64,000 nucleotides of DNA, taken from IMG/VR virus record IMGVR_UViG_2925908680_000001; one strand, 5' to 3'. Made by a program: the position numbers and the translations under genes. Origin of the DNA: a virus. Lineage: Duplodnaviria > Heunggongvirae > Uroviricota > Caudoviricetes. Below the pieces are notes generated by a model. The model worked only from the letters and a program-made list of their open reading frames with translations, did not search any database and was not told the DNA's origin. Positions 838-64,000 of this stretch are shown in pieces (position 1 is the stretch's first letter; each line of letters starts with the position of its first letter).

Positions 838-838
838 A

Positions 839-855: not shown

Positions 856-864
856 CGGTTGTGA

Positions 865-2144: not shown

Positions 2145-2296
2145 GGCTATAATCATGTGTAGATGAACAGTGTTGACATCACTGAAAATACGTGCCTCGA
2201 ATCAAAGGTTTGTATTTTGAAAATTAACTTATAGCTACCCTGTCATTTTTATATTTTTCGCGTAGCGACATCTGTATATAGAGGTGAAATAGTTTC

Positions 2297-3325
2297 ATGA
2301 GTGAATTAATTATCTCTGGCAGTTCCGGTGGTTTTCTGCGCAACATTGGCAAAGAGTACCAGGAAGCCGCAGAAAACTTTATTCGGTTCATGAATGACCA
2401 GGGGGCTTATGCGCCGAATACACTGCGCGACCTCCGGTTAGTGTTTCATTCCTGGGCGCGCTGGTGTCACGCTCGCCAGCTTGCCTGGTTTCCGATCTCA
2501 CCAGAAATGGCCCGCGAGTATTTTCTTCAGCTGCATGATGCCGATCTGGCTTCGACCACCATTGATAAGCACTACGCCATGCTGAACATGCTGCTTTCGC
2601 ATTGTGGCCTTCCGCCACTTTCGGATGATAAAAGTGTTTCTCTGGCTATGCGGCGCATCCGGCGCGAAGCGGCAACTGAAAAAGGCGAACGAACAGGCCA
2701 GGCTATTCCTTTGCGGTGGGATGATCTGAAACTGATCGACGTCCTGTTGTCCAGGTCAGAACGGCTGGTGGACCTGCGCAACCGGGCTTTTCTCTTTGTT
2801 GCATACAATACGCTGATGCGTATGTCGGAAATCTCGCGTATTCGCATAAGAGATCTGGACCAAACAGGTGACACTGTCACGTTGCATATTTCACACACGA
2901 AGACAATAACGACCGCAGCCGGGCTTGATAAGGTGCTTTCCCGTCGCACTACTGCTGTGCTGAATGACTGGCTGGAGGCTTCCGGGCTTCGTGAACATCC
3001 TGACGCGGTGCTGTTCCCGCCGGTACACCGTAGCAATAAGGCCAGGATTACGGCAACGCCCCTTACTGCGCCTGCAATGGAGAAAATATTCAGCGACGCC
3101 TGGGTGTTGCTGAATAAAGGAGATGCTACGCCAAACAAAGGAAGATACCGGACGTGGACCGGGCATAGTGCACGCGTCGGGGCCGCTATCGATATGGCTG
3201 AAAAGCAGGTATCTATGGTGGAGATTATGCAGGAAGGAACCTGGAAGAAACCGGAAACACTTATGCGGTATCTGCGCCGTGGCGGCGTGTCTGTGGGGGC
3301 TAATAGCCGCCTGATGGATTTGTGA
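2297..3325 (+). CDS. dre: Cre-family tyrosine recombinase, Dre-like
   Basis: 342-aa translation aligns along its length with P1 Cre from memory (WFPxxPExxRxYLL, LAFLxxAYNTLxRxxEIxRIR, HSARVGAA, EIMQxGxW) and matches my recollection of Dre. Confidence 0.9.
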   Translation: MSELIISGSSGGFLRNIGKEYQEAAENFIRFMNDQGAYAPNTLRDLRLVFHSWARWCHARQLAWFPISPEMAREYFLQLHDADLASTTIDKHYAMLNMLLSHCGLPPLSDDKSVSLAMRRIRREAATEKGERTGQAIPLRWDDLKLIDVLLSRSERLVDLRNRAFLFVAYNTLMRMSEISRIRIRDLDQTGDTVTLHISHTKTITTAAGLDKVLSRRTTAVLNDWLEASGLREHPDAVLFPPVHRSNKARITATPLTAPAMEKIFSDAWVLLNKGDATPNKGRYRTWTGHSARVGAAIDMAEKQVSMVEIMQEGTWKKPETLMRYLRRGGVSVGANSRLMDL

Positions 3326-3398
3326 ATTAAATTTCTAACACATCTTTTTAGATTAACATCTTTGCTGTAAAGTACCCTCGCCTATTTAGGAGGGTGCT

Positions 3399-3743
3399 TT
3401 GCAGAGTCAAATCACGGAATCAAGACGCTTCAAGGTGGATGGTTACACCGTAACCTTCGCCGCTGGTGTTAAGAACAGTCATGCTGTCGTTGTGTTCGGC
3501 ATCATGACCGGGCTTGAGGCCGTCCCTGTGTTTACCCTCGAAAAAAACTGGCGAAATCTGGAGGAAGCAGAAAGCTACGTCCGGAAAGTAACCATCATTG
3601 CCGCCGAAAAACTCCTGGCCCACTATCAGGAAAATTATCGCACTATGGTCGAGAAGATTAATCTCGCTTTCACTCGCCCCACTACCGGCTTTATCGCACC
3701 AGATACTAATGCAGGTCGATATCCTGCAAGGGGGCGTCGGTGA
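3399..3743 (+). CDS. hypothetical protein, 114 aa
   Basis: ORF with an RBS-like AGGAGG upstream; no recognised motif. Confidence 0.4.
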   Translation: MQSQITESRRFKVDGYTVTFAAGVKNSHAVVVFGIMTGLEAVPVFTLEKNWRNLEEAESYVRKVTIIAAEKLLAHYQENYRTMVEKINLAFTRPTTGFIAPDTNAGRYPARGRR

Positions 3744-4216
3744 AAACTTATTACCCATCTCTGAATTGTTACCCGTCTTCCTATCCAGAATTGTCCGGGA
3801 AGCTGTTAGCTCTATTAGCTAAAGCACCTACGGAATGGTTTAAGCCAGTCGTTATTAATCCGCACTTCCAGGATTACGGATCTGTTCGTACTCGTAACGA
3901 ACTCAAAAACCTACTGGCGCATGGATTCATTCGACACCGTGCCGGGAAAGGCTATCAGTTAGCGATTGCGCCAGAAGAGGCCGTGCGGCTATTCGCATAT
4001 CGTGACAGCCAGACAAAAGCTCGGGTAATAGCTCAAATACTTCATAACGGCAGCACCTATGCCCGCCAGTTTGGCGGCGACACGTCGCAGTTCTTGCGGG
4101 CGGTGCGATCGCTGGAGGAGCAAGGAGTTATTGAAAGTTCCTGTCTTCCTGTTCCTACCGTTCCACATATCAAACGTCGGGTTTACACCTTCACGCAGAG
4201 AGCTAAAAAACTATGA
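3740..4216 (+). CDS. hypothetical protein, 158 aa
   Basis: ORF overlapping its neighbours by 4 bp, consistent with an operon; no recognised motif. Confidence 0.5.
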   Translation: MKTYYPSLNCYPSSYPELSGKLLALLAKAPTEWFKPVVINPHFQDYGSVRTRNELKNLLAHGFIRHRAGKGYQLAIAPEEAVRLFAYRDSQTKARVIAQILHNGSTYARQFGGDTSQFLRAVRSLEEQGVIESSCLPVPTVPHIKRRVYTFTQRAKKL

Positions 4217-4707
4217 TTTACGTAAAAGTGAAACGCCTACATCCGGCAGCAAAACTTCCAGCTTATGCCACCTCCGGATCGGCGGCGATGGATTTTGAGG
4301 CTGTTGAAATAACACCATGCGTCGATAGCAATGGTGAAATTTCCTCAAGCTGGTGGGTGCATACCGGACTGGCTATGGAGATCCCGCCCGGCTGGTGTCT
4401 GAAACTCTATCCGCGCTCCGGGTTGGGTTGCAAAAAACATACCCGCCTGGCTAACTGCGTAGGAATTATCGACTCCGATTATCGCGGTGAAATCATGGCA
4501 AAACTGATTGCTGATCCCGGCGGGGAAGGCGTTTGCCTCAAGCCTGGAATGGCTGTTATGCAAGGCATTTTTGAGCGTGTTGAACAAGTCTCACTAGTCG
4601 AGGTTGAGGAACTCAACGAAACGGAACGTGGTGCTGGTGGCTTTGGTAGCACATCGGAAGGCCACTTTGAAATTAAGCGTTCACCGCTTCAGTACGAAAA
4701 GTTATAA
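4213..4707 (+). CDS. dut: dUTP diphosphatase
   Basis: dUTPase motifs in translation (AGxDL-like SAAMDF, PRSG, GIIDSDYRGE). Confidence 0.85.
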   Translation: MIYVKVKRLHPAAKLPAYATSGSAAMDFEAVEITPCVDSNGEISSSWWVHTGLAMEIPPGWCLKLYPRSGLGCKKHTRLANCVGIIDSDYRGEIMAKLIADPGGEGVCLKPGMAVMQGIFERVEQVSLVEVEELNETERGAGGFGSTSEGHFEIKRSPLQYEKL

Positions 4708-4721
4708 GCAGAGAAAAGACT

Positions 4722-5372
4722 ATGAATAACATGGCAACGAAAGAGCTTTTTAAGGTCCTTCCCAAATACAAAGCTCACAAAAACGTTAGTGCATCGAAAA
4801 TCAAAAATGTTGTTATTTTCGGAGTAACTGATGACCCACTTTGGGGCTGCATCGAACTCGTTGAACCCAAAGGGGCAACAGTTTGTGTTGACGCAATTTT
4901 TTTACAAAAACACCGACCAAAAACTGGCGGGTATCTGATCGTTTATGAAAACGGTTATCTGTTCTATGCCCCGGAGAAACCATTTGAGCAATGCTATGGC
5001 CTGGTTAACGACGCCTCCGAAAATGGGGTATCGCTCAGCATTGAAGGTCACAATGGGGTGACATTCATTACAGCCAGGGACGTAACTATTGCTGTCGGTG
5101 GCATCATTACCACACAAGAAGAAATCGACCTTGAAGCAGCCGACTTTTCTGACGCGCTAATGTGGCTGAAAGAAGGAAAAAATGTAGCTCGACGCGAGTG
5201 GAAAGGCGAAAAGCAATTCTGCTGGTTAGTTCTCGCTGGGAGCGTCAATTTACATGACATTCAGGTTCCTTATGGTGACCATTTTGTGTTGAAAGATGCA
5301 CAAAATATAAACAGCGTTTGGTTGCCGTCTGTTGATGATTTACTGGCTTGTGACTGGTTTGTAGTGGAGTGA
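4722..5372 (+). CDS. hypothetical protein, 216 aa
   Basis: ORF in operon after dut; C-terminal region W/K-rich; unassigned. Confidence 0.55.
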   Translation: MNNMATKELFKVLPKYKAHKNVSASKIKNVVIFGVTDDPLWGCIELVEPKGATVCVDAIFLQKHRPKTGGYLIVYENGYLFYAPEKPFEQCYGLVNDASENGVSLSIEGHNGVTFITARDVTIAVGGIITTQEEIDLEAADFSDALMWLKEGKNVARREWKGEKQFCWLVLAGSVNLHDIQVPYGDHFVLKDAQNINSVWLPSVDDLLACDWFVVE

Positions 5373-5378
5373 TTTGAC

Positions 5379-6155
5379 ATGGAAAGCACCAAAACAATTC
5401 AATACCGCTTGCGTAATGGCCTGCTGGTGGCTGTTAACGCCGACATGTCACTGCCGTTTGACACGATTGAACGCACTATCATGACGTATCTCGGCTTTAA
5501 TGAAGAGCTGAATGAAGAGCATGGCGTAGCTATATGGAGTGATGCAGACAGCGGCGTTCGTCGTTACATCACCGCCAGGGGCAAAGACTACTCTCTGGAA
5601 GAACTGTTTGCCCTTGCGCAGTCTTTCGAATGTGTAGCATTAGACCTGTTTAATGATCCTGCTATAGCGCAACGACTTATACGCGAGCTTGGGCTATCCG
5701 TTACACCAATTATCTTTAAAAATGGCAGCCTAACTGGCACATGGCGCGTAGAACGCATCTCAAACTACCTTCCATATAACCGACAGTTAAATGGAGTAAT
5801 CTCCGGCGTTAATCAGCCCGTAGCGTGTGAAAATGTAAACCTGGTTGTCGCTGTTTTGGCAACCGCATGTCGTGTTATCGGTTTGGCTAAACAGGCATTT
5901 ATTCATTTCCCAAATGGTGCAGAAGGTAGCGCAGAGATTATCGCGTGTGATTTCGAATTTACCTGGATGCTACGCGAATATCTGGACCAAACAGTATTCC
6001 GTGCCGAAGAACTGGATATGTATATCACGTCAACGATTCCAGACGATGTGCGAGCTGAAGCAATCGCTACAGCCAGGGCGAAATGCCGTGCGGCGATTGC
6101 AGAACGGGCCAAAGAAGAACAGTCCAATGATACAGCGGCAGAAGAGGTGAAATAA
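5379..6155 (+). CDS. hypothetical protein, 258 aa
   Basis: ORF followed by a clear terminator. Confidence 0.55.
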   Translation: MESTKTIQYRLRNGLLVAVNADMSLPFDTIERTIMTYLGFNEELNEEHGVAIWSDADSGVRRYITARGKDYSLEELFALAQSFECVALDLFNDPAIAQRLIRELGLSVTPIIFKNGSLTGTWRVERISNYLPYNRQLNGVISGVNQPVACENVNLVVAVLATACRVIGLAKQAFIHFPNGAEGSAEIIACDFEFTWMLREYLDQTVFRAEELDMYITSTIPDDVRAEAIATARAKCRAAIAERAKEEQSNDTAAEEVK

Positions 6156-6161
6156 CAAAAA

Positions 6162-6189
6162 GCCCGCTTGGTATGGCGGGCTTCTTTTC
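6162..6189 (+). terminator. rho-independent terminator
   Basis: gcccgc-ttggtatg-gcgggc hairpin followed by ttcttttc. Confidence 0.6.
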
Positions 6190-6406
6190 AAATACTGGAA
6201 GCACTTTGTCTGCTACCAAGCATTCTCTGTTTAAGCACAACCATTTCCTGACGGCATAACACAGCAATAGCGGTCCTGGCACCAATTTGCTTACCAATCA
6301 GGTATTGCTTTACCTCGCGGCGACTCACGCCATCAAGAAGCATCTTTAACGCTTCACGGGACAATTTGTTGTATTTGCGTGCCATTAATCTACTCCGCAG
6401 AACCAT
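6188..6406 (-). CDS. hypothetical small protein
   Basis: Short ORF on the same strand as doc; start uncertain. Confidence 0.3.
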   Translation of the reverse strand: MVLRSRLMARKYNKLSREALKMLLDGVSRREVKQYLIGKQIGARTAIAVLCRQEMVVLKQRMLGSRQSASSI

Positions 6407-6665
6407 ACAATCTACGTAGCGTGGTAGCAGTAGATGCAGATATCGCCCTTAAAACCTCCTCCTTACTTACATCACTGCGGGAGAGGATTTCAGAAGGCGA
6501 TATTTCCTTTAACGACTTTTGCTTCTCTTTGCAGTTCTCGACCAGTTCCGCAGGAATAACAAACCTGCTATCAATCGGCACAAGTTCATCAAGCGTTTGT
6601 TTGGGTACGTTAAACGTAGGATTCTTGAACACCGCAGATTCGGTTCTTAAGTTAATTTTCGACAT
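6390..6665 (-). CDS. hypothetical small protein, 91 aa
   Basis: Short ORF; unassigned. Confidence 0.35.
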   Translation of the reverse strand: MSKINLRTESAVFKNPTFNVPKQTLDELVPIDSRFVIPAELVENCKEKQKSLKEISPSEILSRSDVSKEEVLRAISASTATTLRRLYGSAE

Positions 6666-6684
6666 TGTTTCGTAACTCCACTAC

Positions 6685-7065
6685 TCAAGTCTTGGAACCA
6701 TATAGTTCACGTAGCTTTTCTGCGACTGAAGATACGGCGATTTCACCAGTCGCAGCCCCTACAGTAAGGTCTGCCAGTTCAGGTGAATCAAATACCTGCA
6801 CCCCGTTACGGCGTAGAAATAGCAGCGCACTGTTTAGCGCGGTACGCTTATTGGCATCATTGAATATATGCCCTCTCGCTGTAGCCACCAGGTAGGTGGC
6901 GGAGACTTCGAAAAGGTCGGTGATCTCTTCGTAGGCAACTCTGGCCTGAACTCTCCCGATAATGGCCTCTGCCCTGCCCGGATCTGACATGCCAGGCAGG
7001 CCGCCGTAGCGGCTTATATTCGCATCATGAAGCGCAATAAGTTCTTCCGGTGATATATGCCTCAT
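6685..7065 (-). CDS. doc: Doc toxin (Fic-family kinase)
   Basis: 126-aa translation almost identical to P1 Doc as I recall it ([25 protein letters not shown]...). Confidence 0.95.
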
Positions 7066-7286
7066 TATCGGTTAACCAGTTCCTTGTTGGTGGAGTCCAG
7101 GGTGTCAAACAGGGATGCAAATTCAGCATCCAGCGCCGCTTTTTTGTAGGCTTCGAAAGTAGACTTGCTGACAATTACTGCTGGCTCACGGCCTCTGCGG
7201 GTGATTTCAACCTCTTCCCCGGCTTCAACATTGTTGAGCACTTCAGAAAGGTTGCCGCGCGCGGTACGGAAGTTAATGGATTGCAT
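7065..7286 (-). CDS. phd: Phd antitoxin
   Basis: Translation from the internal Met ([39 protein letters not shown]...) matches P1 Phd; stop overlaps the doc start. Confidence 0.95.
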
Positions 7287-7358
7287 AAACACCTCGTGTA
7301 CTCGTTATGTGTACACAATTATAAACCTCACAGGCATAAAGCACCAGCCCTTTGCAGC

Positions 7359-7748
7359 TTAAATAACCGGACAATCATCAAACTCCCCAATTCGGGCATC
7401 ATTGATGACATGAGTGATCACACCAAAAACAGCATTACTGCCCGTGCATCCATCGTCATCTACTGGTAACGCCTCTTTCTTCCCGGTGCTTAAATCCTCC
7501 AGGTGCTGGCGCGGATACTTCCTGTATCTCTTTATGCGATATTCACCCTCCATAGCGCAGACAAGTAGCGAACCATCAACCGGAGTAAGTGAGGAATCGA
7601 CCACCAGCAAAGCACCCTGCAATATTCCCTCACGGTGATGGCTATCAGCTGCCCGCATGAAGTAGGTTGCTGATGGATGCCTGATTAGTTGCTGATCAAG
7701 AGAAATTCGGCTTTCAACATAATCCGCCGCAGGAGAAGGGAAGCCCAT
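7359..7748 (-). CDS. humD: UmuD-like S24 peptidase (HumD-like)
   Basis: UmuD/LexA C-terminal domain features; adjacent to phd-doc as in P1. Confidence 0.8.
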   Translation of the reverse strand: MGFPSPAADYVESRISLDQQLIRHPSATYFMRAADSHHREGILQGALLVVDSSLTPVDGSLLVCAMEGEYRIKRYRKYPRQHLEDLSTGKKEALPVDDDGCTGSNAVFGVITHVINDARIGEFDDCPVI

Positions 7749-7767
7749 AGCGTTTTCACCTCAACAA

Positions 7768-7787
7768 TACTGTTCATTTATACAGTA
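7768..7787. promoter_or_regulatory. LexA (SOS) box
   Basis: tACTGTtcatttatACAGta, i.e. CTGT-N8-ACAG, about 20 bp upstream of the humD start. Confidence 0.65.
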
Positions 7788-7922
7788 TACATTAAAGGGA
7801 CACCTTTGGTGCAAACGCGTTACGTACATCAACCACCGCTGATGATTTTGTGCTCTTTGCTACTATTCATCACCAACGGATCAGCGTAACCTCGTTGCCA
7901 ATCAGTTAATAAGGAATTAGCT

Positions 7923-8504
7923 ATGCCTAATCGCATTCCTCTCGATCCTGTATTGCCCAAGAATTTTGACTGCACTCCTAACGAGAAACGCTCTAAAGCT
8001 CAGCTGGACGCCTGGTGGGACCATCCCTATGGGGTTACAGAACATGACGGGAAAATTGTTGTTTATTGTCTGAATGGTGGCGCGTGGGACCGTCCATCCG
8101 TGCTTGGTTTGGCAAATAACTATGATGAAGCCTGTGAACTTGCCGAAAGACAGCAGGCTAGATGGGTGAATACACGGTCTGAACCGACATTCATGTTTTC
8201 AAAAGAACCGCCATTTATACTGGCGAGGATGCCGCAGCGACCGGATCATCAACAAGAAATTGTTGCTGAATTTTCCTCAAGGGATGAGATGAATCTCTTC
8301 TCATTAAAGCAGGAAGAAAGGGATCGCGTCGAAGTGTCTCCAACTCTCGACCACAACCAGATGAACCTGGCCCAACTCGCCTGGTACAGCAAAGAATTAG
8401 AGATGTCTATTGCCCGACTTGAAAACGAAAAAGCCGCTATCCAAGCCCAGCATGAAGTAGTTCTGAACCGGATTAGAGAAATGCAAAACGATAATAGAGG
8501 CTAA
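7923..8504 (+). CDS. hypothetical protein, 193 aa
   Basis: ORF divergent from humD; coiled-coil C-terminus. Confidence 0.5.
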   Translation: MPNRIPLDPVLPKNFDCTPNEKRSKAQLDAWWDHPYGVTEHDGKIVVYCLNGGAWDRPSVLGLANNYDEACELAERQQARWVNTRSEPTFMFSKEPPFILARMPQRPDHQQEIVAEFSSRDEMNLFSLKQEERDRVEVSPTLDHNQMNLAQLAWYSKELEMSIARLENEKAAIQAQHEVVLNRIREMQNDNRG

Positions 8505-33036: not shown

Positions 33037-34698
33037 TTAACCTAACTTCGCCCAGGTATCACGCAGCCCAACGGTGCGGTTAAATACCGGTTTTTCCGCC
33101 GTAGAATGGCGGCTGTCGAGGCAGAAATAACCTTCACGCTCAAACTGGAATGCTTTACCCGCTACCGCTTCTTTCAGCGACGGTTCAGCAAAACCCTGTT
33201 TGATCACCAGCGATTCCGGGTTAATCACCGACAGGAAATCATCCGCAGCACCTGGGTTCGGCACGCTGAACAGACGATCGTACAGGCGGATTTCAACCGG
33301 CAGCGCATGTGCCGCGCTCACCCAGTGAATAACGCCTTTCACTTTACGACCATCTGCCGGATCTTTGCTTAAGGTGTCGGCGTCATAAGTACAGAAGATG
33401 GTGGTGATATTGCCTTCGGCATCTTTCTCCACGCGTTCAGCCTTAATGACGTAAGCATTACGCAGACGCACTTCTTTACCCAGCACCAGACGTTTGTACT
33501 GCTTGTTAGCTTCTTCTCGGAAATCGGCGCGGTCGATCCAAATCTCACCGCTAAACGGCACCTGACGGTTACCCATTTCCGGTTTGTTTGGATGGTTCGG
33601 CATGGTGACCATTTCGCCTTCGCCCTGATAGTTTTCGATGACCAGTTTCACCGGATCGATAACCGCCATTGCGCGCGGCGCATTTTCGTTGAGATCTTCA
33701 CGGATGCAGGATTCCAGCGACGCCATCTCAATGGTGTTGTCCTGCTTGGTCACGCCGATGCGTTTGCAGAACTCACGAATAGAAGCCGCAGTGTAACCAC
33801 GACGACGCAGACCGGAAATGGTCGGCATACGCGGGTCATCCCAGCCTTCAACGTGCTTGTCGGTCACCAGCAGGTTCAGCTTACGCTTGGACATCACAGT
33901 GTATTCCAGATTCAGGCGCGAGAATTCGTACTGGCGCGGGTGAACAGGAATGGTGATGTTGTCCAGCACCCAGTCGTAAAGGCGACGGTTGTCCTGGAAC
34001 TCAAGCGTACACAGAGAGTGCGTAATACCTTCCAGCGCATCGCTGATGCAGTGGGTGAAGTCGTACATCGGGTAGATGCACCACTTGTTGCCAGTCTGGT
34101 GGTGTTCAGCAAACTTAATGCGATACAGCACCGGATCGCGCATCACGATAAACGGCGAAGCCATGTCGATTTTCGCACGCAGGCAGGCTTTACCTTCTTC
34201 AAAACCACCGGCACGCATTTTTTCGAACAGCGCCAGGTTCTCTTCAACGCTGCGATCGCGGTACGGGCTGTTTTTACCCGGCTGCGTCAGGGTGCCGCGG
34301 TATTCGCGGATCTGTTCCGGCGTCAGTTCGTCAACATACGCCAGGCCTTTGTTGATCAGTTCAACAGCATAGGCGTGGAGCTGATCAAAATAATCGGAGG
34401 AGTAACGGATGTTGCCAGACCAGTGAAAACCTAACCATTCAACGTCGTTTTTAATCGACTCGACGTACTCGATATCTTCTTTTACCGGGTTAGTGTCGTC
34501 GAAACGCAGGTTGCACTGGCCTTTATAGTCCTGGGCGATCCCGAAGTTCAGGCAGATAGATTTCGCATGACCAATATGCAGATAGCCATTCGGTTCCGGC
34601 GGGAAACGGGTATGTACTGTGGTGTGCTTACCACTGGCCAGATCTTCATCGATGATCTGACGAATAAAGTTAGTCGGGCGGGCTTCTGCCTCACTCAT
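33037..34698 (-). CDS. glnS: glutaminyl-tRNA synthetase
   Basis: 553-aa translation matches E. coli GlnS from memory with only a handful of substitutions (HIGH and VMSKR motifs present). Confidence 0.95.
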
Positions 34699-36555: not shown

Positions 36556-37515
36556 TCAACCGATAGATTTTAGACCATATACAAGAGCAAGTTGTGGATC
36601 ATCAGCAACGAAAAACCTATCGTCACGAATGTTTACCTGCTCACGGATAGCATCAGCAACAAGCGGCGCGCCGCCACCAATTACCATAACATGTGTGTAT
36701 CCTTTGAAATCACTGATCACATCCAGTACGCGTGTACGGAGTCGCTCTATGCTTGACGAAATGGCTTTCTTAACATCATCAATAGCAGACGGATCGTTAA
36801 TATTGTCGGTCAGATAATCCTCATCATCTCGATTAATGATTAATTGATCGACGTTATAATTAGAGGTTTCGGTATTAGCTTTTGCAAGTGCCTGTCTGAC
36901 CTCTTTAGTTACCAGCGAAACGCCGAGATTAGAATCGCCAAATACGCGAGAAACGGCGGTCATTTGCCCGGCAACCATCGACACATCCAGAGTAGTCCCG
37001 CCAAGATCAACAATAAGCACAGAATGCGCTGGCACAAGGCTGTCGCACAGACCGATCCCTGCGGGTATTGACTCCGGGCGCACAGTCACTTTTTTGATAG
37101 TAAAAACCTGACCTTTGTTAAGGGTGACTGGTCGCATCAGGCTGGCCTTTTTCCGCTCAATATTTTTCATGTTGTATTGTGCGTCGTCGTCATAAAACTC
37201 TGCCAGTGGCAACGTGACTACTATTTCCACTTCTTGAGGCTCAATGCCACTTGTAAGCAGGGCATGATGAACAGCAAGCACATTAAGCGGGCTGTATTGC
37301 CATTCAACGTTATTCGTTGGCAGAACATCCGGCGAGATCAAGTCATATGAATATTTTTCGTCATCAATGATGTAGTTAAACGTTTTTCCTGCGCCAAATG
37401 TGGCGGACCATCCACGTTTAAAACTGTTCGGGCAGATATGGGTTCGAGTTTCCCCGTCTTGTTCCCACAGCATTTTGATATTGGTAGAACCATCGTCGAT
37501 AAAAATGCGCATCAT
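36556..37515 (-). CDS. parM: ParM/StbA actin-like segregation ATPase
   Basis: Actin-fold motifs (IFIDDGSTNIK, VLIVDLGGTTLD, VMVIGGGA); start taken at the internal MMRIF. Confidence 0.85.
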   Translation of the reverse strand: MMRIFIDDGSTNIKMLWEQDGETRTHICPNSFKRGWSATFGAGKTFNYIIDDEKYSYDLISPDVLPTNNVEWQYSPLNVLAVHHALLTSGIEPQEVEIVVTLPLAEFYDDDAQYNMKNIERKKASLMRPVTLNKGQVFTIKKVTVRPESIPAGIGLCDSLVPAHSVLIVDLGGTTLDVSMVAGQMTAVSRVFGDSNLGVSLVTKEVRQALAKANTETSNYNVDQLIINRDDEDYLTDNINDPSAIDDVKKAISSSIERLRTRVLDVISDFKGYTHVMVIGGGAPLVADAIREQVNIRDDRFFVADDPQLALVYGLKSIG

Positions 37516-37610
37516 ATTGCTCCACTTCTGAGACACATTTGAGAAAGAATTGAATCTTATATGAGAAAACAAAATAAAACCAGAAGTTGAGAGAGCAAAA
37601 AGCACCAGAT

Positions 37611-37666
37611 TTGAGACAAACCAGAGACAAACTAGAGACACACTAGAGACAAGTATGAGAAACAAG
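37611..37666. repeat. parC-like iterated repeats
   Basis: Four to five tandem copies of about 11 bp (ccagagacaaa, ctagagacaca, ctagagacaag) upstream of parM. Confidence 0.5.
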
Positions 37667-48794: not shown

Positions 48795-49087
48795 TTTGAG
48801 GGCATTTTTTACATCATCAATTCATCTGTAATGAAGGCATTCTTTACACATTTCATATCAATCAGTTAACACAGTGAATGATAATAAAAAAGCGCAATAA
48901 GAATGCACGATACGCACGATATTGGTTGAGGGCGATTTTTACATAGTCCTTACATATCAATACGTTATATAAAAACACAACTTGCTAATAACAAGATACA
49001 TGCAATTAAGATGTAAAAATTGCCCTCAATTGCCGATCGTTAAGGGCAAATTCTACACCTTGAGAGGGGTGTAAAAATTGCCCTTAA
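48795..49087. repeat. iteron array downstream of repA (incA-like)
   Basis: Five copies of an about 20-bp unit TTGAGGGCAnnTnTTACA(C/T)C in both orientations (48795, 48926, 49020, 49040, 49068). Confidence 0.7.
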
Positions 49088-49872
49088 GACTGCTGATAGG
49101 TAAATTTTATCCTGGTAACTTTGCCGCCTTCCGTCACCTCTGAGAAGACTATTTTCATTTTTGTATTTTTTTCAATCTCTGCTACAGCCTTCGTTAAAAA
49201 ACTTCTCTTAAATTCGGCATACCGCTGATAGCTTTTTGGTAACCCATAACGCTCCCGCATCCATTCGACGCCAAGTATGGCAAAGCCGCTTCCATCATCC
49301 TTCCTGTACTGGCATAAGGACTCATAAAGCCGCATAGAATAAGGATTTGTAAGGCGAGATACTTCGGTAAAATTCAGCCTTGTGAATCTCTTATCAAGCA
49401 GAGTAAAAAACGGCATGAGATATGGATTAAGATGAATAATGTAAGTCCCGCGCCGTGGTGAATAGGCATCCTTAATCATCCAAGGATAAGACTCATAACT
49501 GTCTTCTGATTCGGTCGATTCATCAGGGTTATATATCGTAACTTTCTTCTCGCTAAGCCCTGAAATGGCCTTACGAATATCCTTGCTGGCTTCAGCAGAG
49601 GGCAAATTATACATCTCTGCATATTCGTTGACCGTCAACTCACAGGCACCTGAACCAAGAACGCCATCCTTAGAAGCATAGCGAAGTCTTCCCACCACAA
49701 TAAACAACAGTCGCTTTTGGTCGCGAGTCAGGTGATAAGCAGCCTCCGTGATCTCATTGGCTTGTGCCAAACTACGACTAATAGGTGTCGCTGACTCAAT
49801 CAGGCTGACGGCTTTTGCTGTTAATTCCGCTCTGTTCATAACCCTGTGTGATCCTTCAAATGGTGAGGGCAA
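49084..49872 (-). CDS. repA: plasmid replication initiator RepA (iteron-binding)
   Basis: ORF flanked on both sides by iterons of one family; start codon uncertain (possibly the internal MNRAEL). Confidence 0.75.
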   Translation of the reverse strand: MPSPFEGSHRVMNRAELTAKAVSLIESATPISRSLAQANEITEAAYHLTRDQKRLLFIVVGRLRYASKDGVLGSGACELTVNEYAEMYNLPSAEASKDIRKAISGLSEKKVTIYNPDESTESEDSYESYPWMIKDAYSPRRGTYIIHLNPYLMPFFTLLDKRFTRLNFTEVSRLTNPYSMRLYESLCQYRKDDGSGFAILGVEWMRERYGLPKSYQRYAEFKRSFLTKAVAEIEKNTKMKIVFSEVTEGGKVTRIKFTYQQS

Positions 49873-55379: not shown

Positions 55380-56806
55380 CGATTACAGAATTACTGGACA
55401 AATTTAACGCTAAGTTAAATGAAAACACATGGTGGTCACGATTTGTAAATAGTCAGTTTGTGCAGATGCACGCTATATTCGGATCACAGCTTATTTATAT
55501 TGCCCGTACATTTGCAAGCCGCGGCCTCACTGAGGGACTTATTTCAACGGCTACGCGCCGCTCAAGTATTTTAGCGGTTGCTGAAGATCGTAGCTACGTA
55601 GGGCGATTTGTTAGTGCTTCATACGGAACAACGTCTATAACCAATAAAACTGATCGGGATATTACATTACCAGCCGGGGCTGAATTGCTTGCCAATGACC
55701 AAACACCTTTGGCAATTATTAACAGTGTTGTAATTCCTGCTGGAGGAACTGTTTCTGGCGTAGAAACTAAACAGCATGAAGCTGTTAGCGTTACATTTGA
55801 TATTGAGAAGGAAACTTTATTTCTGACATTGTTGCTTTCCAGAGAGTTAACAAAAGAAGTCTCTAGCCTGGATGTTTATGTTATTACAGATGGCGTAGAA
55901 GAAAAATGGACATATAACCCATTATTTAGAATGTCCAGAGACAAGAGTAAGCACTATTCATTGGCATATAAACCTACAGAACAACTTGGAGTCAAGTTTG
56001 GTGATGGTTCTATGGGTATGATGCCTCCAGCAGGCTGTCAGGTTCGAATCGATGTTATGGCTAGCCTTGGCGACTATACTTTGGCTGAAGGACAAAAGTT
56101 AGAACCGGCTGGAAATATCGCTCAATATGTGGAGTCACTTGAGTTTAAAACTGATTCGATCATTACCGGTGGTAGTGGTATGGAAACTACAGAAGAAACT
56201 CGAAATCGTGCTCAGTATTATGTTGCATACGATGAACAAGTGGTATGGGGCGGTGATTATCGCCAATTCATTCAGAATGTTGTTCATGGAACTTCATGGT
56301 TGAACGTTTGGGGCGAAGCGTTACAAGAGAAAATAACTGGGTTTGACGTTCGAAACATCAACAAAATTTTCTTTTGCGGACATAAGCCGGGTGTAAGCCA
56401 GGCTCAGCTAAAATCAGAAATACTGAAAGCTCTAGAGAATGTTCCAAATGAGTTGAACAAGCGGTTCGAGTATGTAGATACAAATGAACAGCCATTTACT
56501 ATAAATTTTATAGGTATTGCACGTAAAAATGTTCTGATAGACGATGCTCAAAATGCTATTAAAGCAGCGTTGGAAGATAATTTTGGCCGTGATTCGTCAT
56601 CATTCAGTTTATTACTACAGAGTGATGATGATTCCCAGCAATGTTATGCACAGGTAAAAGTTAAAGATATTTGGCGAGTAATAGAGTCTCTGGATATGTT
56701 TCTGTCTTACGACATAACAATACAAAATATGAAAGATGCTGTTTACTTTAATGACTTCATTTATCTTGACGTGAAATCTTCAACGTTCAGCATTTCTTAC
56801 CCGTAA
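55376..56806 (+). CDS. baseplate J-like protein
   Basis: 476-aa ORF in baseplate position. Confidence 0.5.
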   Translation: MTITELLDKFNAKLNENTWWSRFVNSQFVQMHAIFGSQLIYIARTFASRGLTEGLISTATRRSSILAVAEDRSYVGRFVSASYGTTSITNKTDRDITLPAGAELLANDQTPLAIINSVVIPAGGTVSGVETKQHEAVSVTFDIEKETLFLTLLLSRELTKEVSSLDVYVITDGVEEKWTYNPLFRMSRDKSKHYSLAYKPTEQLGVKFGDGSMGMMPPAGCQVRIDVMASLGDYTLAEGQKLEPAGNIAQYVESLEFKTDSIITGGSGMETTEETRNRAQYYVAYDEQVVWGGDYRQFIQNVVHGTSWLNVWGEALQEKITGFDVRNINKIFFCGHKPGVSQAQLKSEILKALENVPNELNKRFEYVDTNEQPFTINFIGIARKNVLIDDAQNAIKAALEDNFGRDSSSFSLLLQSDDDSQQCYAQVKVKDIWRVIESLDMFLSYDITIQNMKDAVYFNDFIYLDVKSSTFSISYP

Positions 56807-56816
56807 TGAGGTTAGC

Positions 56817-57662
56817 ATGAAAGATAATTGGCTTAAGGAACGATTAACTAAAGTAAAACAGGATTCCCATCTCTGGAGTGCCTTTATAGACGCTTTGCAA
56901 GATGTCTGGAATGAGGCAGTAGAACCAATATTAACAAGAATAAGTAACAGAAAATCCTTCTTCACTATGGACAGTGAGGATATGGATGCCCGCATTGCTG
57001 AATACGGGCGTTTTTTCGTTATCACTGAAAAAGATAAGACCCGTAGGCCAATGCTGCTGGCGCAACGATTAGATGAAGTGCACTTTAAAGGCACTATCTT
57101 GCCTATTGAGCAGACATTCTGGCGTGAATTCGGTTGTATTCCTGTTAGTTGGGAACCGCTATATGCACCTGTAAATATAGAAAAACACCCCTATGGTTCA
57201 TATTTTGCGACAGAAATAGAAATACCTACGGCACAGGCTCAATTCGGTGAGTTCTTCCTGACATCAAGGGGGCTGGTCGTTGTTGATCAGAACAAGCTAT
57301 ATCGCTCATATGGAGAGCAGGATAAAGAAGCCGCTGTGCAGAAATTGTTATCTGACTTCGAAACAGTAATAGCCCCTTTGTTGCCATTGCATATTGTTTT
57401 TGATGGCGTCTCGTTTCGGCTTAGTGCTGTATTCCCTGAAGTGGCAGAAATACTAAATTGCCTGTCTACGGATGTTTCGGTAATTGAAGGTGTTTATGTT
57501 ACTGAGAGTATGGCTGATATGCTATCCCGTAGTGATACCTCCTGCCAGGTAAACAATATTTCTCTTAACGCCATACCGAACAGAACGGCAGAAAAGCAAT
57601 TACATCTTGATGTAACCCCACTCGATGCGTGGCCTTTGGATTACCACCTTCAACCTGTTTAA
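56817..57662 (+). CDS. baseplate / tail-fibre-attachment protein
   Basis: ORF in operon upstream of the tail fibre. Confidence 0.45.
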   Translation: MKDNWLKERLTKVKQDSHLWSAFIDALQDVWNEAVEPILTRISNRKSFFTMDSEDMDARIAEYGRFFVITEKDKTRRPMLLAQRLDEVHFKGTILPIEQTFWREFGCIPVSWEPLYAPVNIEKHPYGSYFATEIEIPTAQAQFGEFFLTSRGLVVVDQNKLYRSYGEQDKEAAVQKLLSDFETVIAPLLPLHIVFDGVSFRLSAVFPEVAEILNCLSTDVSVIEGVYVTESMADMLSRSDTSCQVNNISLNAIPNRTAEKQLHLDVTPLDAWPLDYHLQPV

Positions 57663-57756
57663 TAATTCTTCCCCCAAATGCGGGGGAAGAACAACGGAAA
57701 TCACAAACTGAGCATACTCTCCTTTGGTTCATTGCTTATGAAGGGGCTATGTTCGT

Positions 57757-58203
57757 ATGGCTGAAAATTTAAAGGCAAGAGATGGTAACCGCCTGTATAA
57801 GGCGCAATTGCTTTCCTACTATTATTCACGCCGCGCTGAGTCGGCGATCGGCAAAGGTGCGCGTTTTGTTATCTCTAAGGCGTATTGGTGCAAATCTAGT
57901 CTGGTAACTGCTAATGGTGCAGGAGGCTGGAATATAGCGGACATTCCACTCGATTTTAAATTGAGTAACGCTCAACAGTTTGCTGTGTCCGATCTGATAT
58001 TGTCCAGTGTGGATGGGATTATCACTATCAATGCAGCCTTCCCTCAAGAAAGAATGCCGGATAACACGCCTTACGACTTTAACACGCTTGTGCTTGTTGA
58101 TGCTGAGGAACAGGCTTTTGCTGTGCTTTGCACCCAGCAAGACACCCTCTATAAAGGTAAACGTTACAGTATTCTCATGACAATCGAGCAAGTTGAGGGA
58201 TGA
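57757..58203 (+). CDS. tail protein (P1 R-like position)
   Basis: ORF immediately upstream of the tail fibre gene. Confidence 0.45.
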   Translation: MAENLKARDGNRLYKAQLLSYYYSRRAESAIGKGARFVISKAYWCKSSLVTANGAGGWNIADIPLDFKLSNAQQFAVSDLILSSVDGIITINAAFPQERMPDNTPYDFNTLVLVDAEEQAFAVLCTQQDTLYKGKRYSILMTIEQVEG

Positions 58204-61200
58204 TTATGGGTGCTGATAAAACGAACAACATAATGACACTATCCTCTGGTGTCTCACAGCCGTTGCTTGCTGATGTTCAATATTTCGAACTCTATAGTAG
58301 TTCGGCTCTTAACAGAAAACTTAAAAATATTGTTTTGCCGGGCTTTTACTGTGGATTTGAACCAGTTCCCGGCACAGGGTTGAGCGTCCGTATAACTTCT
58401 GAAAACTCAGAAGGTAAAGGGGCTGCTTCAGTAGATGTAAATAATGTTCAGATATCCGTTCAGCAAATAGAAGATGTGACTGTCTCGGTAAAGGCTGGGG
58501 CTACCAACATTATTGTGCTAGAAGCCAATTTTGAACATGGTGTAAAAACGACACAGGTAGAGAGCGCATCTTCTGTCAGTGCTGCAAGAATTTACGCGCG
58601 TACGGACAATACTATTGGGCAGAATCAAATTGAATTATGTCGAGTTATCGTGCCTAACGGCGCAACGGCTGTGACGAAAGAAATGATTGTGCTTAAATAC
58701 CGGGTTAACCGTGCTGTTGGTGTCGAATTCTCTAATGAAATAAGCAGTACAGAAGAAAGAAAAGCGGCTACACCTCTGGCTGTCAAAACTCTCCATGATT
58801 TGGTTGATACAAAAGCTCCGCTCGATAGTCCACATCTGTCAGGTACGCCGACTTCGCCGACACCTGAACCCGGTACAAACAACACACAGATCGCAAATGC
58901 GGCCTTTGTCTATGCTGCTATAAATGCGCTTATCAATGGTGCTCCGGGAACGATGGACACGCTGAAAGAAATAGCGGCTGCGATCAATAACGACCCGAAT
59001 TTCAGCACAACTATCAACAATGCCCTGGCTCTTAAAGCTCCTTTGGCAAGCCCGGCGTTCACAGGTACGCCGACAGCACCTACGGCCTCACAAGGCACAA
59101 ATAGCACGCAGATTGCAAATACAGCCTTTGTTAAGGCAGCTATAACGGCACTTATCAACGGTGCACCTGGCACATTGGATACGCTGAAAGAAATAGCGGC
59201 TGCGATCAATAATGACCCGAATTTCAGCACAACTATCAACAATGCCCTGGCTCTTAAAGCTCCTTTGGCAAGCCCGGCGTTCACAGGTACGCCGACAGCA
59301 CCTACGGCCTCACAAGGCACAAATAGCACGCAGATTGCAAATACAGCCTTTGTTAAGGCAGCTATAACGGCACTTATCAACGGTGCACCTGGCACATTGG
59401 ATACGCTGAAAGAAATAGCGGCTGCGATCAATAATGACCCGAATTTCAGCACAACTATCAACAATGCCCTGGCTCTTAAAGCTCCTTTGGCAAGCCCGGC
59501 GTTCACAGGTACGCCGACAGCACCTACGGCCTCACAAGGCACAAATAGCACGCAGATTGCAAATACAGCCTTTGTTAAGGCAGCTATAACGGCACTTATC
59601 AACGGTGCACCTGGCACATTGGATACGCTGAAAGAAATAGCGGCTGCGATCAATAATGACCCGAATTTCAGCACAACTATCAACAATGCCTTGGCTCTCA
59701 AAGCGCCTTTGGCAAGCCCTGCATTAACGGGTGTCCCTACTGCGCCGACCGCCGCACAGGGCACAAATAATACGCAGATAGCTACGACCGCTTATGTAAG
59801 AGCTGCCATATCCGCATTGGTTGGTTCATCACCAGAAGCTCTTGATACCCTGAATGAGCTTGCCGCAGCACTTGGCAATGACCCGAACTTTGCGACAACA
59901 ATGACAAATGCGCTGGCAGGCAAACAGCCTCTGGATGCAACTTTAACCGCGTTTGCTGCCCTTGCGACTGGTGCAAACAAACTGCCTTATTTCACCGGTA
60001 AGGATACGGTAGCGCAGACTGATTTAACGTCAGTCGGTCGCGATATTCTGGCTAAAACAAGCACACTGGCCGTTATCCAATACCTTGGTTTAAGAGAACT
60101 CGGAACAAGCGGTGAAAAGATCCCCCTGTTGAGCACGGCTAACACATGGAGTGCACGCCAGACTTTCAACGGCGGGATCACCGGGGCGCTGACAGGGAAT
60201 GCCGACACCGCGACGAAATTGAAAACAGCCATAAACATTAATGGCGTCAGGTTCGATGGTTCTACGAACATTTCGATACCAACAATTACGTCTAGAGGAC
60301 GCGTTACTGCGCTTACCGGTACAACGCAAGGTGCTGCTACTGGATTGCAGATGTATGAGGCATACAACAATGGCTACCCTTCCCCCTATGGCAATGTGCT
60401 TCACCTTAAAGGTGCCACCGCTGCTGGCGAAGGTGAGTTATTCATTGGCTGGAGTGGCACGAGCGGTGCCCATGCGCCCGTACATATCCGTTCGCGGCGG
60501 GATACTGATTCTGCCAACTGGTCTGAATGGGCGCAGGTCTATACGTCAAAAGATTCAGTTCCCGGCGTCAATGCCAAAGGGGATCAGGATACCTCCGGCA
60601 ATGCTGCTACGGCGACCAGATTGCAGACGGCGCGCACTATTAACGGTGTCTCGTTTGATGGTTCTAAAAACATTGAGCTAACGGCGGAAGATTTAAATCT
60701 TGAGCAAACCGTAGAATTAGCCGCTGGATCATTGCAGAAAAACCAGAACGGCGCAGATATTCCAAACAAAGATAAATTTACGCAAACAATAGGTGCTTGC
60801 CGCTCTTTTCATGGTGCTATTAGCACAGGTGCAGGAAACTGGACGACGGCACAATTGATTGAATGGCTGGATTCTCAAGGGGCATTCAATCACCCATACT
60901 GGATGTGCAAATGTTCATGGTCATACGGCAATAATAAAATTATTACCGATACTGGCTGTGGAACTATTCATCTTGCAGGTTGCGTTATTGAGGTTATGGG
61001 TAATAAAGGTGCCATGACCATCCGTGTAACCACCCCGAGCACTTCCAGCGGTGGCGGAACTACTAATGCACAATTTACTTATATAAACCATGGCGCAGAT
61101 TACGCACCAGGCTGGCGGCGTGACTACAGTACCAAAAATCAGCAGCCTGCATTTGCTTTAGGGCAGACAGGAAGCACAGTTGGAAATGACAAAGCTGTTG

Positions 61201-61646
61201 GATGGAACTCGATTAGCGGGGTTTATAACGCTAATATTGGTGGAGCATCTACGTTGATTCTCCATTTTTATATGGGAGCTGGTAGTTGTCCGGCTGTTCA
61301 GTTCCGCGTGAATTATAAGAACGGCGGTATTTATTATCGTTCTGCGCGTGACGGTTATGGTTTTGAAGCCGACTGGTCGGAATTTTATACTACAACACGT
61401 AAACCATCTGCGGGAGATGTTGGGGCATATACCAAAGCAGAATGTAATTCACGATTTATTACAGGTATTCGATTAGGTACAAAATCGTCTGTGCAAACAT
61501 GGAATGGTCCTGGATGGAACGATAAATCTGGTTATGTTGTTACTGCCTCAATCAACTCAAATAAGGACGAACTTATTGATACAACTCAGGCAAGGCCGGT
61601 GCAGTATTGTATCAATGGTACATGGTATAACGCGGGAAGTATTTAA
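58200..61646 (+). CDS. tail fibre protein (S-like), constant N-terminal part plus variable C-terminal part
   Basis: 1148-aa protein with five 74-residue tandem repeats; C-terminus similar to the inverted alternative gene. Confidence 0.8.
58812..59920. repeat. tandem 222-bp repeats (five copies) inside the tail fibre gene
   Basis: Units begin near 58812, 59034, 59256, 59478 and 59700; the central three are near-identical. Confidence 0.8.
60689..60765. repeat. left inverted repeat of the invertible tail-fibre segment
   Basis: About 77 bp matching the reverse complement of 63924-64000 (two mismatches, one 2-bp indel). Confidence 0.6.
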
Positions 61647-61648
61647 TT

Positions 61649-62182
61649 ATGCAGCATTTAAAAAACATCAGATCAGGTAATCCAAAAACTGTTGAACAAT
61701 ATGAATTGACGCGACAATTTGGTGTTGTCTGGTTGTATTCTGAAGACGGTAAAAACTGGTATGAGGAACAAAAGAACTTCCAGGATGACACTATAAAAAT
61801 TGCTTACACATCAGATGGAATTATTGTGGCTATAAATAAAGACGTATCTACAATAAATCCAGAAGGTTTAAGTGTGGTTGAGGTTGCTGACATTACTGCA
61901 AATCGCCGTGCTGACATTTCTGGTAAATGGATGTTCAAAGATGGCGTAGTGATAAAGCGAACTTATACCGAGGAAGAACAGAGGCAACAAGCTGAAAATG
62001 AAAAGCAAAGCCTATTGCAACTTGTCAGGGATAAAACCCAACTATGGGACTCACAGCTACGGCTGGGCATCATTTCCGATGAGAATAAACAGAAATTAAC
62101 CGCGTGGATGCTATATGCGCAGAAAGTAGAATCTACAGATACCTCCATCCTGCCAGTAACGTTTCCCGAACAACCAGAATGA
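61649..62182 (+). CDS. tail fibre assembly protein (U-like)
   Basis: Tfa-family features; paralogous to the oppositely oriented ORF at 62211-62618. Confidence 0.75.
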
Positions 62183-62186
62183 GAAA

Positions 62187-62212
62187 AGGCCCGTTATCGG
62201 GCCTTATTTTTT
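62187..62212. terminator. bidirectional rho-independent terminator
   Basis: aggcccg-ttat-cgggcct followed by tatttttt, between convergent U and U'. Confidence 0.65.
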
Positions 62213-62618
62213 ACTCAGGTTTTTGTGGCCATTCTGGCTTTGCCGTATCCACGCGGCTTACAAGAACGCTGTAGCGTTCCCATGCTTCCAGTCGGCTACG
62301 CTCCTCATCTGTTGCCATGTTCAGCCTGACAGCGCGTTCCAGTGGCTGAATAATGCTTTCTGCTTCGGAAAGTAACGCGGCCTTTTGTGATTCGGCCTGT
62401 TGTTGCTGTTCGTCTGCCGTATAAATCCGTTTAACCACAGCTCCGTCCTTAAACATCCACTTACCGGAATCATCGGCCCGACGATTGGCCGTTATATCGG
62501 GAACCTCAACGACGCTAAAACCTTCAGGGTTAAGCGTGGATGCATCTTTGGTGATGGCGACAATAATATTATTTTCATCGTAAACAATCTTTATTGTGTC
62601 TGGCTGAAAGTTTTTCAC
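62211..62618 (-). CDS. alternative tail fibre assembly protein (U'-like)
   Basis: Tfa-family paralog in opposite orientation. Confidence 0.7.
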
Positions 62619-62740
62619 TTCCTCATACCAGTTTTTTTTCGTCCTCAGAGTAAAGCCAGATGACTCCGTGCTTCTTTGTTAACTCATACTGCTCCACTGT
62701 TTTAGCATTACCAGCTTTTATGTTCTTTAAGTGCATCATA

Positions 62741-63955
62741 TTAAACGCTCGCTACATTATACCAGGTGCCATTTATATACTTTTGAACGGGTCTGTAATA
62801 AACACCAGCAATATTATCGGCGGAGTTGGAACCTGTATCCTGAACATTTATACCAGACAATACATGACCTGAAGGACACTGGAAATTCCATGTTTGCCAG
62901 TTGTTTACACCATAATATTGCTGTGAGCCAAGCCGAACATCCTTTACATATCGGGAATCAATGTTACCCCAGTTGCTTGGTTGTATCTGACCGTTTACAG
63001 CAAATGTCACCGAGTTATCTGTATTTCGCTGACTATAGAAATGCCAGCCTGAATCATCACCAAGCTCTGCAACAGTTGGTCTTGACGAATTTCCCCACAA
63101 GTTAAATGATGCATTACGGGCAGCTGTATTTGAGCTTGAAAGTGTGAATAACTTACTTTCCCCAGTCTGAATACCCTTTAATGATATTGCTGAACCATTT
63201 CTAAAGCGGAATACATGCACACCATTAGCATAAGCATCCAGCACCCCATCACCATTTTGTTTAAACCCGGTATCGTTATCTCCTAAAACTATTGAATTGC
63301 CACCCAGGGCATTAGCCGTTCCAATCCCCAGATTTCCGCTAAAAATGGCATTAATACCGAATATTGAGTGAGAACAATAAAACCCTCGCCCATTGTTAAA
63401 ATCAAGAATAGCTTGTGCGTTCGTGCTTTCTGTCGCGGGATTAGTTGCTCCCCACTTATATGTTGTTTGACCGACGGTATAATCCTGAGTTGGAACAATA
63501 ACCGTTAGCCCTTCTTCAGCAGAAACCCGCACAGGAAAAGCCCTGCCTTCAACGTAAAAAACGCTGCATACATCATCTTCTTTAAGGCTTGTTACAATGG
63601 AATGGATTGCGCGCTCATTAGTCTGATACGTCGAAAAATAACCTGCCGCATATGAACCACGATCAGTCCAGCCACCAGGCATTACCATTCCATTGAATTC
63701 GCAGTTATTCATTTCGTAATTACCACCGGCAGATGTGGTCGTTATAATCACTCTGGAAGCCAGCTCGCCAGTGCTGCCTGTGGAACGCCGGAAAATAACT
63801 GGATACCACTTTCCACCAACTGCATTAGACGGCGCATTAAATGCGTACTGCCGCATTCCTTTTTTCTTATCCACTTCGCCTTTGCTGTAAACATTAATGT
63901 TACTCAGGAAGCGATCTTTATCAGGAATATCCGCGCCGTTCTGGTTTTTTTGCAA
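62741..63955 (-). CDS. alternative tail fibre variable segment (S'v-like)
   Basis: N-terminus ([10 protein letters not shown]) identical to the junction residues in S; C-terminus similar to the S C-terminus. Confidence 0.75.
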
Positions 63956-64000
63956 TGATCCAGCGGCTAATTCCTTACGGTTTGCTCAAGATTTAAATCT
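63924..64000. repeat. right inverted repeat of the invertible tail-fibre segment (cut by window end)
   Basis: Reverse complement matches 60689-60765. Confidence 0.6.

Follow-up and report, generated by a model that had tools for sequence, protein, structure and literature searches.

A contig that very probably breaks off inside the Cin-invertible tail-fibre segment of a P1-like plasmid prophage

The last kilobases of the 64,000-nt viral sequence analysed here (IMG/VR record IMGVR_UViG_2925908680_000001; hereafter the window) carry two sets of tail-fibre genes that face each other. They raise the question of where the borders of an invertible segment lie, and which recombinase would turn it over. 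A sequence-only reading had proposed a segment of the P1 C or Mu G kind that starts at 60689, is bounded by inverted repeats of about 77 bp and has its crossover near 60735-60760. We conclude that, very probably, the window stops within the C segment of a P1-like plasmid prophage and that Cin, a serine recombinase, inverts this 4.5-kb block. This is the known P1 Cin/cix host-range switch in typical form and nothing new in kind, and the biological gain is small: it is one more copy of a classic switch in a public, annotated phage-plasmid type. The practical gain is one of method.

The window corresponds to positions 37539-101538 of CP031767.1, and its position 64000 is a physical contig end that is followed by 100 Ns. 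The first 8.2 kb of CP031767.1 are repeated as its last 8.2 kb. The start copy (L008, positions 1-8240) is identical to the end copy over 8,243 nt save 3 bases, and both carry the segment in one and the same orientation. Because the start copy extends past the point where the window stops, the full right repeat arm, the second cix site, cin and the enhancer were read from this redundant sequence outside the window, and their positions are given as window equivalents. For P1, the cix sites, crossover positions, enhancer and C-segment layout were taken from the curated GenBank annotation AF234172.

Two alternative cassettes, each composed of a fibre tip and a chaperone gene, are present as convergent pairs, as had been proposed. 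The S gene (58206-61646, + strand) is a 1146-aa ORF, with a further in-frame ATG at 58200, and is predicted to encode the tail fibre that is currently expressed. Its constant part, Sc, extends to the cix site at 60085 and contains 4.1 copies of a 222-bp repeat. It is followed by a repeat-encoded part (60086-60773) and by the variable receptor-binding part Sv (60774-61646). The protein matches the Pfam families Phage_fiber_2 and gp37_C, and the exact product is recorded in CP031767.1. The adjoining U gene (61649-62182, + strand; Pfam Caudo_TAP, E = 1e-35) codes for the tail-fibre assembly chaperone of the same cassette. At the protein level, Sv shares 89% identity with P1 Sv' and 82% with Mu S'; for U, the values are 83% with P1 U' and 85% with Mu U'. 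These identities assign the tip that would be expressed in the present orientation to the P1 S' / Mu S' type, which is one difference from P1.

The silent cassette lies on the opposite strand. Its chaperone gene U' (62211-62739, - strand; Pfam Caudo_TAP) is of the P1 U / Mu U type, with 98% identity to P1 U and 95% to Mu U, and is intact at 175 aa in the duplicate copy. The ORF for the alternative receptor-binding part, Sv' (62741-63913, - strand), has no Pfam match. Its 404 variable residues represent another allele than P1 Sv, since only the last ~95 aa align with the Sv parts of P1 (42%) and Mu (identities of 42-46% for the two). It is 98% identical to the corresponding part of a P1-like plasmid (L001) and of a Mu-like prophage (L006). 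The convergent genes U and U' are separated by a G+C-rich hairpin (62186-62205) with an 8-pair stem that includes 6 G-C pairs. A T-run comes after it on the + strand, and the structure scores as terminator-like on both strands, suggesting that it may serve as a terminator.

The left boundary of the invertible segment is a cix site at 60073-60098 (TTATCCAATACCTTGGTTTAAGAGAA), located within S; its central TT occupies 60085-60086. P1 has exactly the same 26-mer centred on its annotated cixR crossover, and this sequence is the sole good match (1 mismatch) to TCNNAAACCNNGGTTTNNGA in the 64-kb window. The partner site is of the cixL type and lies outside the window at equivalent positions 64591-64616 (L008 8831-8856). 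It is identical to P1 cixL, as are the corresponding sites of L001 and L003. The two sites are thus 26-bp imperfect dyads that share their central dinucleotide and are inverted with respect to each other, such that the central TT reads towards the segment from either side; only 60073-60098 falls inside the window.

Immediately inside the cix sites is a long inverted repeat. The left arm (60075-60773, 699 bp) codes for a stretch of S that does not change with orientation, and it pairs with the right arm (L008 8854-8156) over 699 nt without gaps and with 8 mismatches (98.9% identity). The window retains only the inner 87 nt of the right arm (63914-64000), which are cut by the contig end. Within the window alone, 60689-60773 pairs with 64000-63914 (85 versus 87 nt) as a perfect 25-nt block separated by a 2-nt indel from 60 nt at 92%, a match that far exceeds chance for a 6-kb region. 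The repeat noticed earlier is therefore real, but its length of about 77 bp is wrong. What can be seen in the window is the mere inner tip of an arm that reaches 614 nt farther out, and the segment starts at the cix site rather than at 60689. A repeat at a window or contig edge may be the stub of a far larger structure.

The earlier expectation that no invertase would be found in the window but that a recombinase would lie just beyond its end was borne out. The best tblastn hit in the window has E = 0.4, whereas a Cin homologue starts 608 nt past position 64000. The cin gene (window-equivalent 64608-65168, - strand), whose 3' end is overlapped by the second cix site, codes for a protein of 186 aa with Resolvase (PF00239) and C-terminal HTH_7 (PF02796) domains, the arrangement of the Hin/Gin/Cin/Pin group of serine recombinases. 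It shares 182 of its 186 residues with P1 Cin and is intact, with a full Resolvase domain and, at its N terminus, the conserved serine motif YIRVST. In its 5' part, cin contains a 72-nt stretch (window-equivalent 65079-65150) that agrees with the annotated P1 enhancer at 68 positions (94%). This resemblance makes the stretch a putative enhancer that probably depends on Fis.

The likeness to P1 also extends to the gene order, which is R, S, the bracketed segment (cix, arm, Sv, U, then U', Sv', arm, cix), cin, lyd and darA, and to the crossover, which falls in the same S codon context (VIQYL/GLRELGTSG). As in the C segment of P1, repeats of about 0.6-0.7 kb lie just inside the crossover sites and encode the shared part of S. 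Gapless arms measure 699-702 bp in the relatives, with 699 bp here, but 636 bp in P1, and the segment is 4,515 bp here versus 4,256 bp in P1.

This organisation suggests how the switch would operate. The block spans from the cix site inside S to its inverted partner, which lies about 600 nt beyond the window and overlaps cin at its 3' end, with one 699-bp arm just inside each site encoding a shared stretch of S, and with the convergent Sv+U and Sv'+U' cassettes and the intervening hairpin between the arms. Transcription and translation would come in from Sc, so that the cassette facing Sc is fused to it in frame and expressed with its own chaperone. When inversion at both central TTs was carried out in silico on the error-free copy, an uninterrupted S' of 1246 aa was obtained; each cassette therefore fuses in frame to Sc in one orientation. 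Based on the literature on P1, Mu and Hin, Cin dimers bound to both cix sites would form a synapse at the enhancer with its bound Fis. Cleavage at the central dinucleotide would be staggered by 2 nt, and rotation of the subunits would exchange the strands. The change of orientation would then yield fibres with the other receptor specificity.

Among relatives of this replicon, the block occurs in both orientations. The isogenic plasmids L001 and L002 (97,648 bp each) are distinguished solely by which way round the block between the cix sites lies; with one block flipped, 4,508 nt align with 0 mismatches. Other relatives also occur in either orientation, and the matches of flipped relatives break, or start, at window position 60075. 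In the L001/L002 pair, the outer half-sites stayed put while arm polymorphisms from position 482 inward, the equivalents of window 60554-60656, moved with the segment. Thus, the crossover lies upstream of these polymorphisms in the outer arm, and the comparison brackets it to arm positions 10-481. This interval leaves room for an exchange by RecA within the arms, which at 699 bp and 98.9% identity are an ample substrate for homologous recombination. We nevertheless consider it very improbable that RecA mainly inverts the block and that Cin is dispensable or inactive. Both 26-bp sites match the P1 cix sites exactly, intact Cin and the enhancer sequence adjoin the segment, and the arms of L001 retain 20 differences, all in the inner third, that frequent exchange would tend to erase or shuffle. 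Inversion of the P1 C segment is Cin-dependent.

In the window, the silent cassette appears to be broken. The right arm carries an extra CT at 63974-63975, 26 nt from the physical contig end, after which S' stops at aa 838 (EQTVRN and a stop codon). In addition, U' is ended after about 40 aa by one additional T in the run at 62632-62639 (T8). If these frameshifts (+2 in the S' arm and +1 in U') were real, the switch would be decaying and flipping would give fibre-less, non-infective particles. In favour of this reading, about 18 kb of expressed genes contain no frameshifting indels when compared with a 98% relative. Such decay is nevertheless most unlikely. The second copy in CP031767.1 lacks the CT, has T7 in place of T8, and with only these 3 bases different has its genes intact. 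The affected copy makes up the final 2.4 kb of a contig terminating in Ns, and both changes are duplications of single bases such as long-read consensus errors produce.

Surveys of other genomes point in the same direction. The extra CT was not found in any relative checked, and exact-pattern scans of GTDB representative genomes and IMG/VR gave no match to the right arm in its form with the 2-nt insertion. Likewise, BLAST against 5,426 E. coli genomes gave no full-length identical match to either indel region, and neither variant is present in these E. coli genomes, the GTDB representatives or IMG/VR. The indel and the U' frameshift, missing from the duplicate copy and located near the contig end, are therefore assembly errors, and they break U' and S' in the end copy of CP031767.1. 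We also considered that the T8 run of U' might cause slippage, either programmed or transcriptional, and dropped this idea given the T7 of the duplicate copy. As a weaker possibility, a sequenced culture of mixed orientation may lie behind both the consensus errors and the break of the contig after 87 nt of the right arm.

This outcome removes the argument that a 2-bp indel forces the crossover into the inner, perfectly matching part of the repeat, and mechanisms should not be argued from indels near contig ends. Similarly, it had been observed that S' begins where S switches from constant to variable sequence. The S and S' sequences do part ways directly after 60773/63914, but the start of the ORF at QKNQ results from the indel, and without the CT insertion the S' frame stays open along the entire arm as far as the cix site.

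An inner crossover would resemble the layout of the Mu G segment, which uses Gin/gix with the same logic and with homologous cassettes; Mu Gin is 77% identical to P1 Cin. In such a segment, crossover takes place at the S constant/variable junction within repeats of about 34-80 bp. Mu and Mu-like prophages do carry short repeats (39 bp in Mu and 82 bp in L006), and their homology to the window begins near 60703-60730. However, gix in Mu sits right at the junction, upstream of the sequence homologous to window 60703 onward, whereas the sites in the present replicon lie about 690 bp farther out. The window position equivalent to Mu gix has no gix-like dyad and corresponds to no recombination site of this replicon. 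The AAAACC motif at 60741-60746, which had been taken for a half-site, belongs to the coding sequence, and its Mu counterpart is found within the G segment on the downstream side of gix. A search for cix/gix-like dyads with up to 3 mismatches gave none in 60689-60773 or 63914-64000.

A Mu-G-like segment with repeats of about 77-85 bp (60689-60773/63914-64000) and an inner crossover at about 60735-60760 can hence be set aside as barely conceivable, given that adding the sequence past the contig end prolongs the repeat outward as far as 60075, that the moved polymorphisms of L001 and L002 are impossible with a crossover there, and that the actual site is about 650 bp upstream.

The Mu-like E. 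coli prophage L006 (NZ_CM129886) carries essentially the same inner 3.2-kb cassette pair, with 95.5% nucleotide identity and with Sv and Sv' proteins that are 99.7% and 98% identical to those of the window. Unlike the present replicon, it has gix-type sites, a Mu-type fibre base and a com/mom neighbourhood, and a Gin-type recombinase adjoins its segment. Thus, the same cassette pair serves P1-type and Mu-type frames. Since it is common to both kinds of switch at 95-98% identity, the pair could have been exchanged recently as a module conferring an uncharacterised receptor specificity, although we regard this as a tentative suggestion that is less likely to be right than wrong.

The replicon as a whole differs from P1 in its backbone, which is of the Rep3/ParM type rather than RepA/ParAB. 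The duplicated ends of CP031767.1 represent an untrimmed circular overlap of 8.2 kb, and the true size of the replicon is about 93.3 kb, not 101.6 kb.

The end of the window carries an invertible tail-fibre segment that is a P1-type C segment. All testable defining features of that class are present: the recombinase family, both recombination sites, a pair of long arms, two in-frame cassettes, and an enhancer sequence. The system is of a known kind and stands in a public record; what is useful here are the corrections to the segment start, the crossover site, a 699-bp repeat that has been cut, the artefactual indels and U', and an untrimmed 8.2-kb overlap. BLAST searches of phage, plasmid and E. 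coli collections identify the virus as a P1-like plasmid prophage. The last 6 kb contain S, a long tail-fibre gene (58206-61646, + strand), the Caudo_TAP chaperone gene U (61649-62182, +), another chaperone gene, U', in the reverse orientation (62211-62739, -), and, reaching from 62741 towards the end of the window, the Sv' ORF (-). Pfam matches back the assignment of the fibre gene and of both chaperones. Together they form two convergent tip-plus-chaperone cassettes, each in frame with the constant part of S (Sc) in one orientation, with a G+C-rich hairpin (62186-62205) between them.

An exact-product look-up of S led to record CP031767.1. Window 41064-64000 is 100% identical to this record, which places the window at record positions 37539-101538. 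Window position 64000 is followed in the record by a terminal run of 100 Ns, and thus the assembled contig physically ends there. The final 8,243 nt (93296-101538; window 55758-64000) repeat record positions 1-8240 without a mismatch, though the end copy holds 3 extra bases. This duplication is a circular overlap that was left untrimmed, and the real replicon is thus about 93.3 kb rather than 101.6 kb. The start copy extends beyond the sequence at which the window breaks off.

In the end copy, the right arm carries an additional CT (63974-63975) that brings the S' reading frame to a stop (after …EQTVRN), and the T run of U' at 62632-62639 holds one T too many. Both changes duplicate single bases and lie within 2.4 kb of the contig end. 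They are absent from every relative compared, and neither variant was found in GTDB representative genomes or IMG/VR. The start copy is without exactly these three bases; U' is intact there (175 aa), and inverting this copy in silico yields an intact S' of 1246 aa. Across about 18 kb of expressed genes, comparison with a 98% identical relative revealed 0 coding frameshifts. Judged by these sequence comparisons, the insertions are assembly errors and the broken U' and S' are artefacts. The sequence-only reading had taken the 2-bp indel to force the crossover into the inner part of the repeat, an argument that falls because the indel is an assembly error.

That reading was right that an inverted repeat is present, with 60689-60773 pairing with 64000-63914 (a 25-nt perfect block, the 2-nt indel, then 60 nt at 92%), and that S and S' diverge directly after a 10-residue stretch it had named. 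However, this is not a short element of about 77 bp, but the stub of a much larger repeat cut by the contig end. The full right arm, present in the start copy, forms a gapless 699-nt pairing with window 60075-60773 that includes 8 mismatches. Inverted repeats of 699-702 bp, with a recombinase gene directly past the right arm, occur in three relatives. Their arms are gapless, as are those of P1 (636 bp), Mu (39 bp), and a Mu-like prophage (82 bp). The long arms encode part of S common to both orientations. Within the left arm, a 78-nt direct repeat (60195-60272 and 60597-60674, 71% identity) codes for the recurring motif GNA(D/A)TATKL…ING(V)(R/S)FDGS; it is an internal fibre-shaft repeat with no relation to recombination.

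As the P1 reference we used a curated record that annotates cixL, cixR, crossover positions and C-segment boundaries. The 26-mer at P1 cixR recurs without change at window 60073-60098 (TTATCCAATACCTTGGTTTAAGAGAA), which is the sole good match, with 1 mismatch, to the cix/gix-type dyad pattern in the 64-kb window. A scan permitting up to 3 mismatches found no such dyad within the originally proposed repeat. The crossover site is 60073-60098, its central dinucleotide is 60085-60086, and the segment begins at 60086 instead of 60689.

Support for this placement comes from a natural experiment. Two P1-like plasmids from different isolates (L001 and L002, 97,648 bp each) are identical save for inversion of the block between the 26-bp sites; after flipping, all 4,508 nt compared agree without a mismatch. 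The outer half-sites (arm positions 1-9) kept their differences with the flanks, and all arm polymorphisms from position 482 inward travelled with the segment. The crossover thus lies between arm positions 10 and 481 (window-equivalent 60082-60553), an interval that agrees with the cix centre and excludes the earlier proposal of 60735-60760. Among close relatives, several align with the BLAST query on its opposite strand and no further out than position 76 (window 60075), and others align from its first position onward. In a Salmonella relative, too, the segment is inverted compared with the window, and the alignment breaks at 60075.

The AAAACC at 60741-60746, previously suggested as a half-site, is coding sequence; its Mu counterpart falls within the G segment, on the downstream side of gix. 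Where Mu has gix, the homologous part of the window lacks any gix-like sequence. It does contain a perfect 12-bp palindrome (60689-60700, AGATTTAAATCT), which does not look like a gix/cix dyad and probably arises by chance from the coding sequence (…EDLNL…). A Mu G-type switch is defined by a crossover that falls inside short repeats, where the constant and variable parts of S meet; this feature was tested for and is absent here.

No Cin-like sequence was found inside the window. An invertase had been predicted just beyond its end, and the start copy indeed encodes a Cin orthologue there, a 186-aa Resolvase and HTH_7 protein (window-equivalent 64608-65168, -) that shares 182 of 186 residues with P1 Cin. 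The second 26-bp site (CAATCCTAAACCTTGGTTTAAGAGAA, window-equivalent 64591-64616) is inverted relative to the first, and the central TT is common to both. A 72-nt stretch inside the Cin-like gene, identical at 68 positions to the enhancer annotated in P1, is a putative enhancer. The steps of inversion are established for Cin, Gin and Hin. By analogy, Cin dimers on the cix sites would synapse with the Fis-bound enhancer, cut at the central dinucleotide with a 2-nt stagger, rotate, and religate. Inversion would then switch the fibre tip and chaperone made, and so change host range.

The tip expressed in the orientation seen here belongs to the P1 S'/Mu S' type (89% and 82% protein identity), and its chaperone is U'-type. 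The silent Sv' is unlike P1 Sv or Mu Sv, is 98% identical to counterparts in other P1-like plasmids and one Mu-like prophage, and is paired with a chaperone of the P1 U type. The inner cassette pair (60733-63958) shares 95.5% identity with the G segment of a Mu-like prophage in E. coli (NZ_CM129886), whose switch differs in having a Gin-type recombinase and 82-bp repeats. This match suggests that entire cassette pairs have been exchanged between switches of the P1 and Mu types. Within the constant part of S, a 222-bp (74-aa) unit is repeated in tandem 4.1 times (58875-59779, 94% matches), equivalent to the repeated 'b' elements of the P1 annotation. S is 3441 nt here versus 2919-3297 nt in relatives, which suggests that fibre shaft length may vary through repeat copy number.

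Elsewhere in the window, a Rep3-type plasmid replication initiator (49084-49872, -) lies on the opposite strand amid a tail/baseplate gene block, and a ParM/StbA segregation ATPase is encoded at 36556-37665 (-). The backbone is thus unlike that of P1, which has RepA/ParAB. The phage-plasmid also encodes a full-length homologue of class I glutaminyl-tRNA synthetase (33037-34698, -). It carries all three GlnRS/GluRS Pfam domains (E = 5e-130) and is conserved in relatives, where it is annotated glnS; a search of the window for tRNA genes found none.
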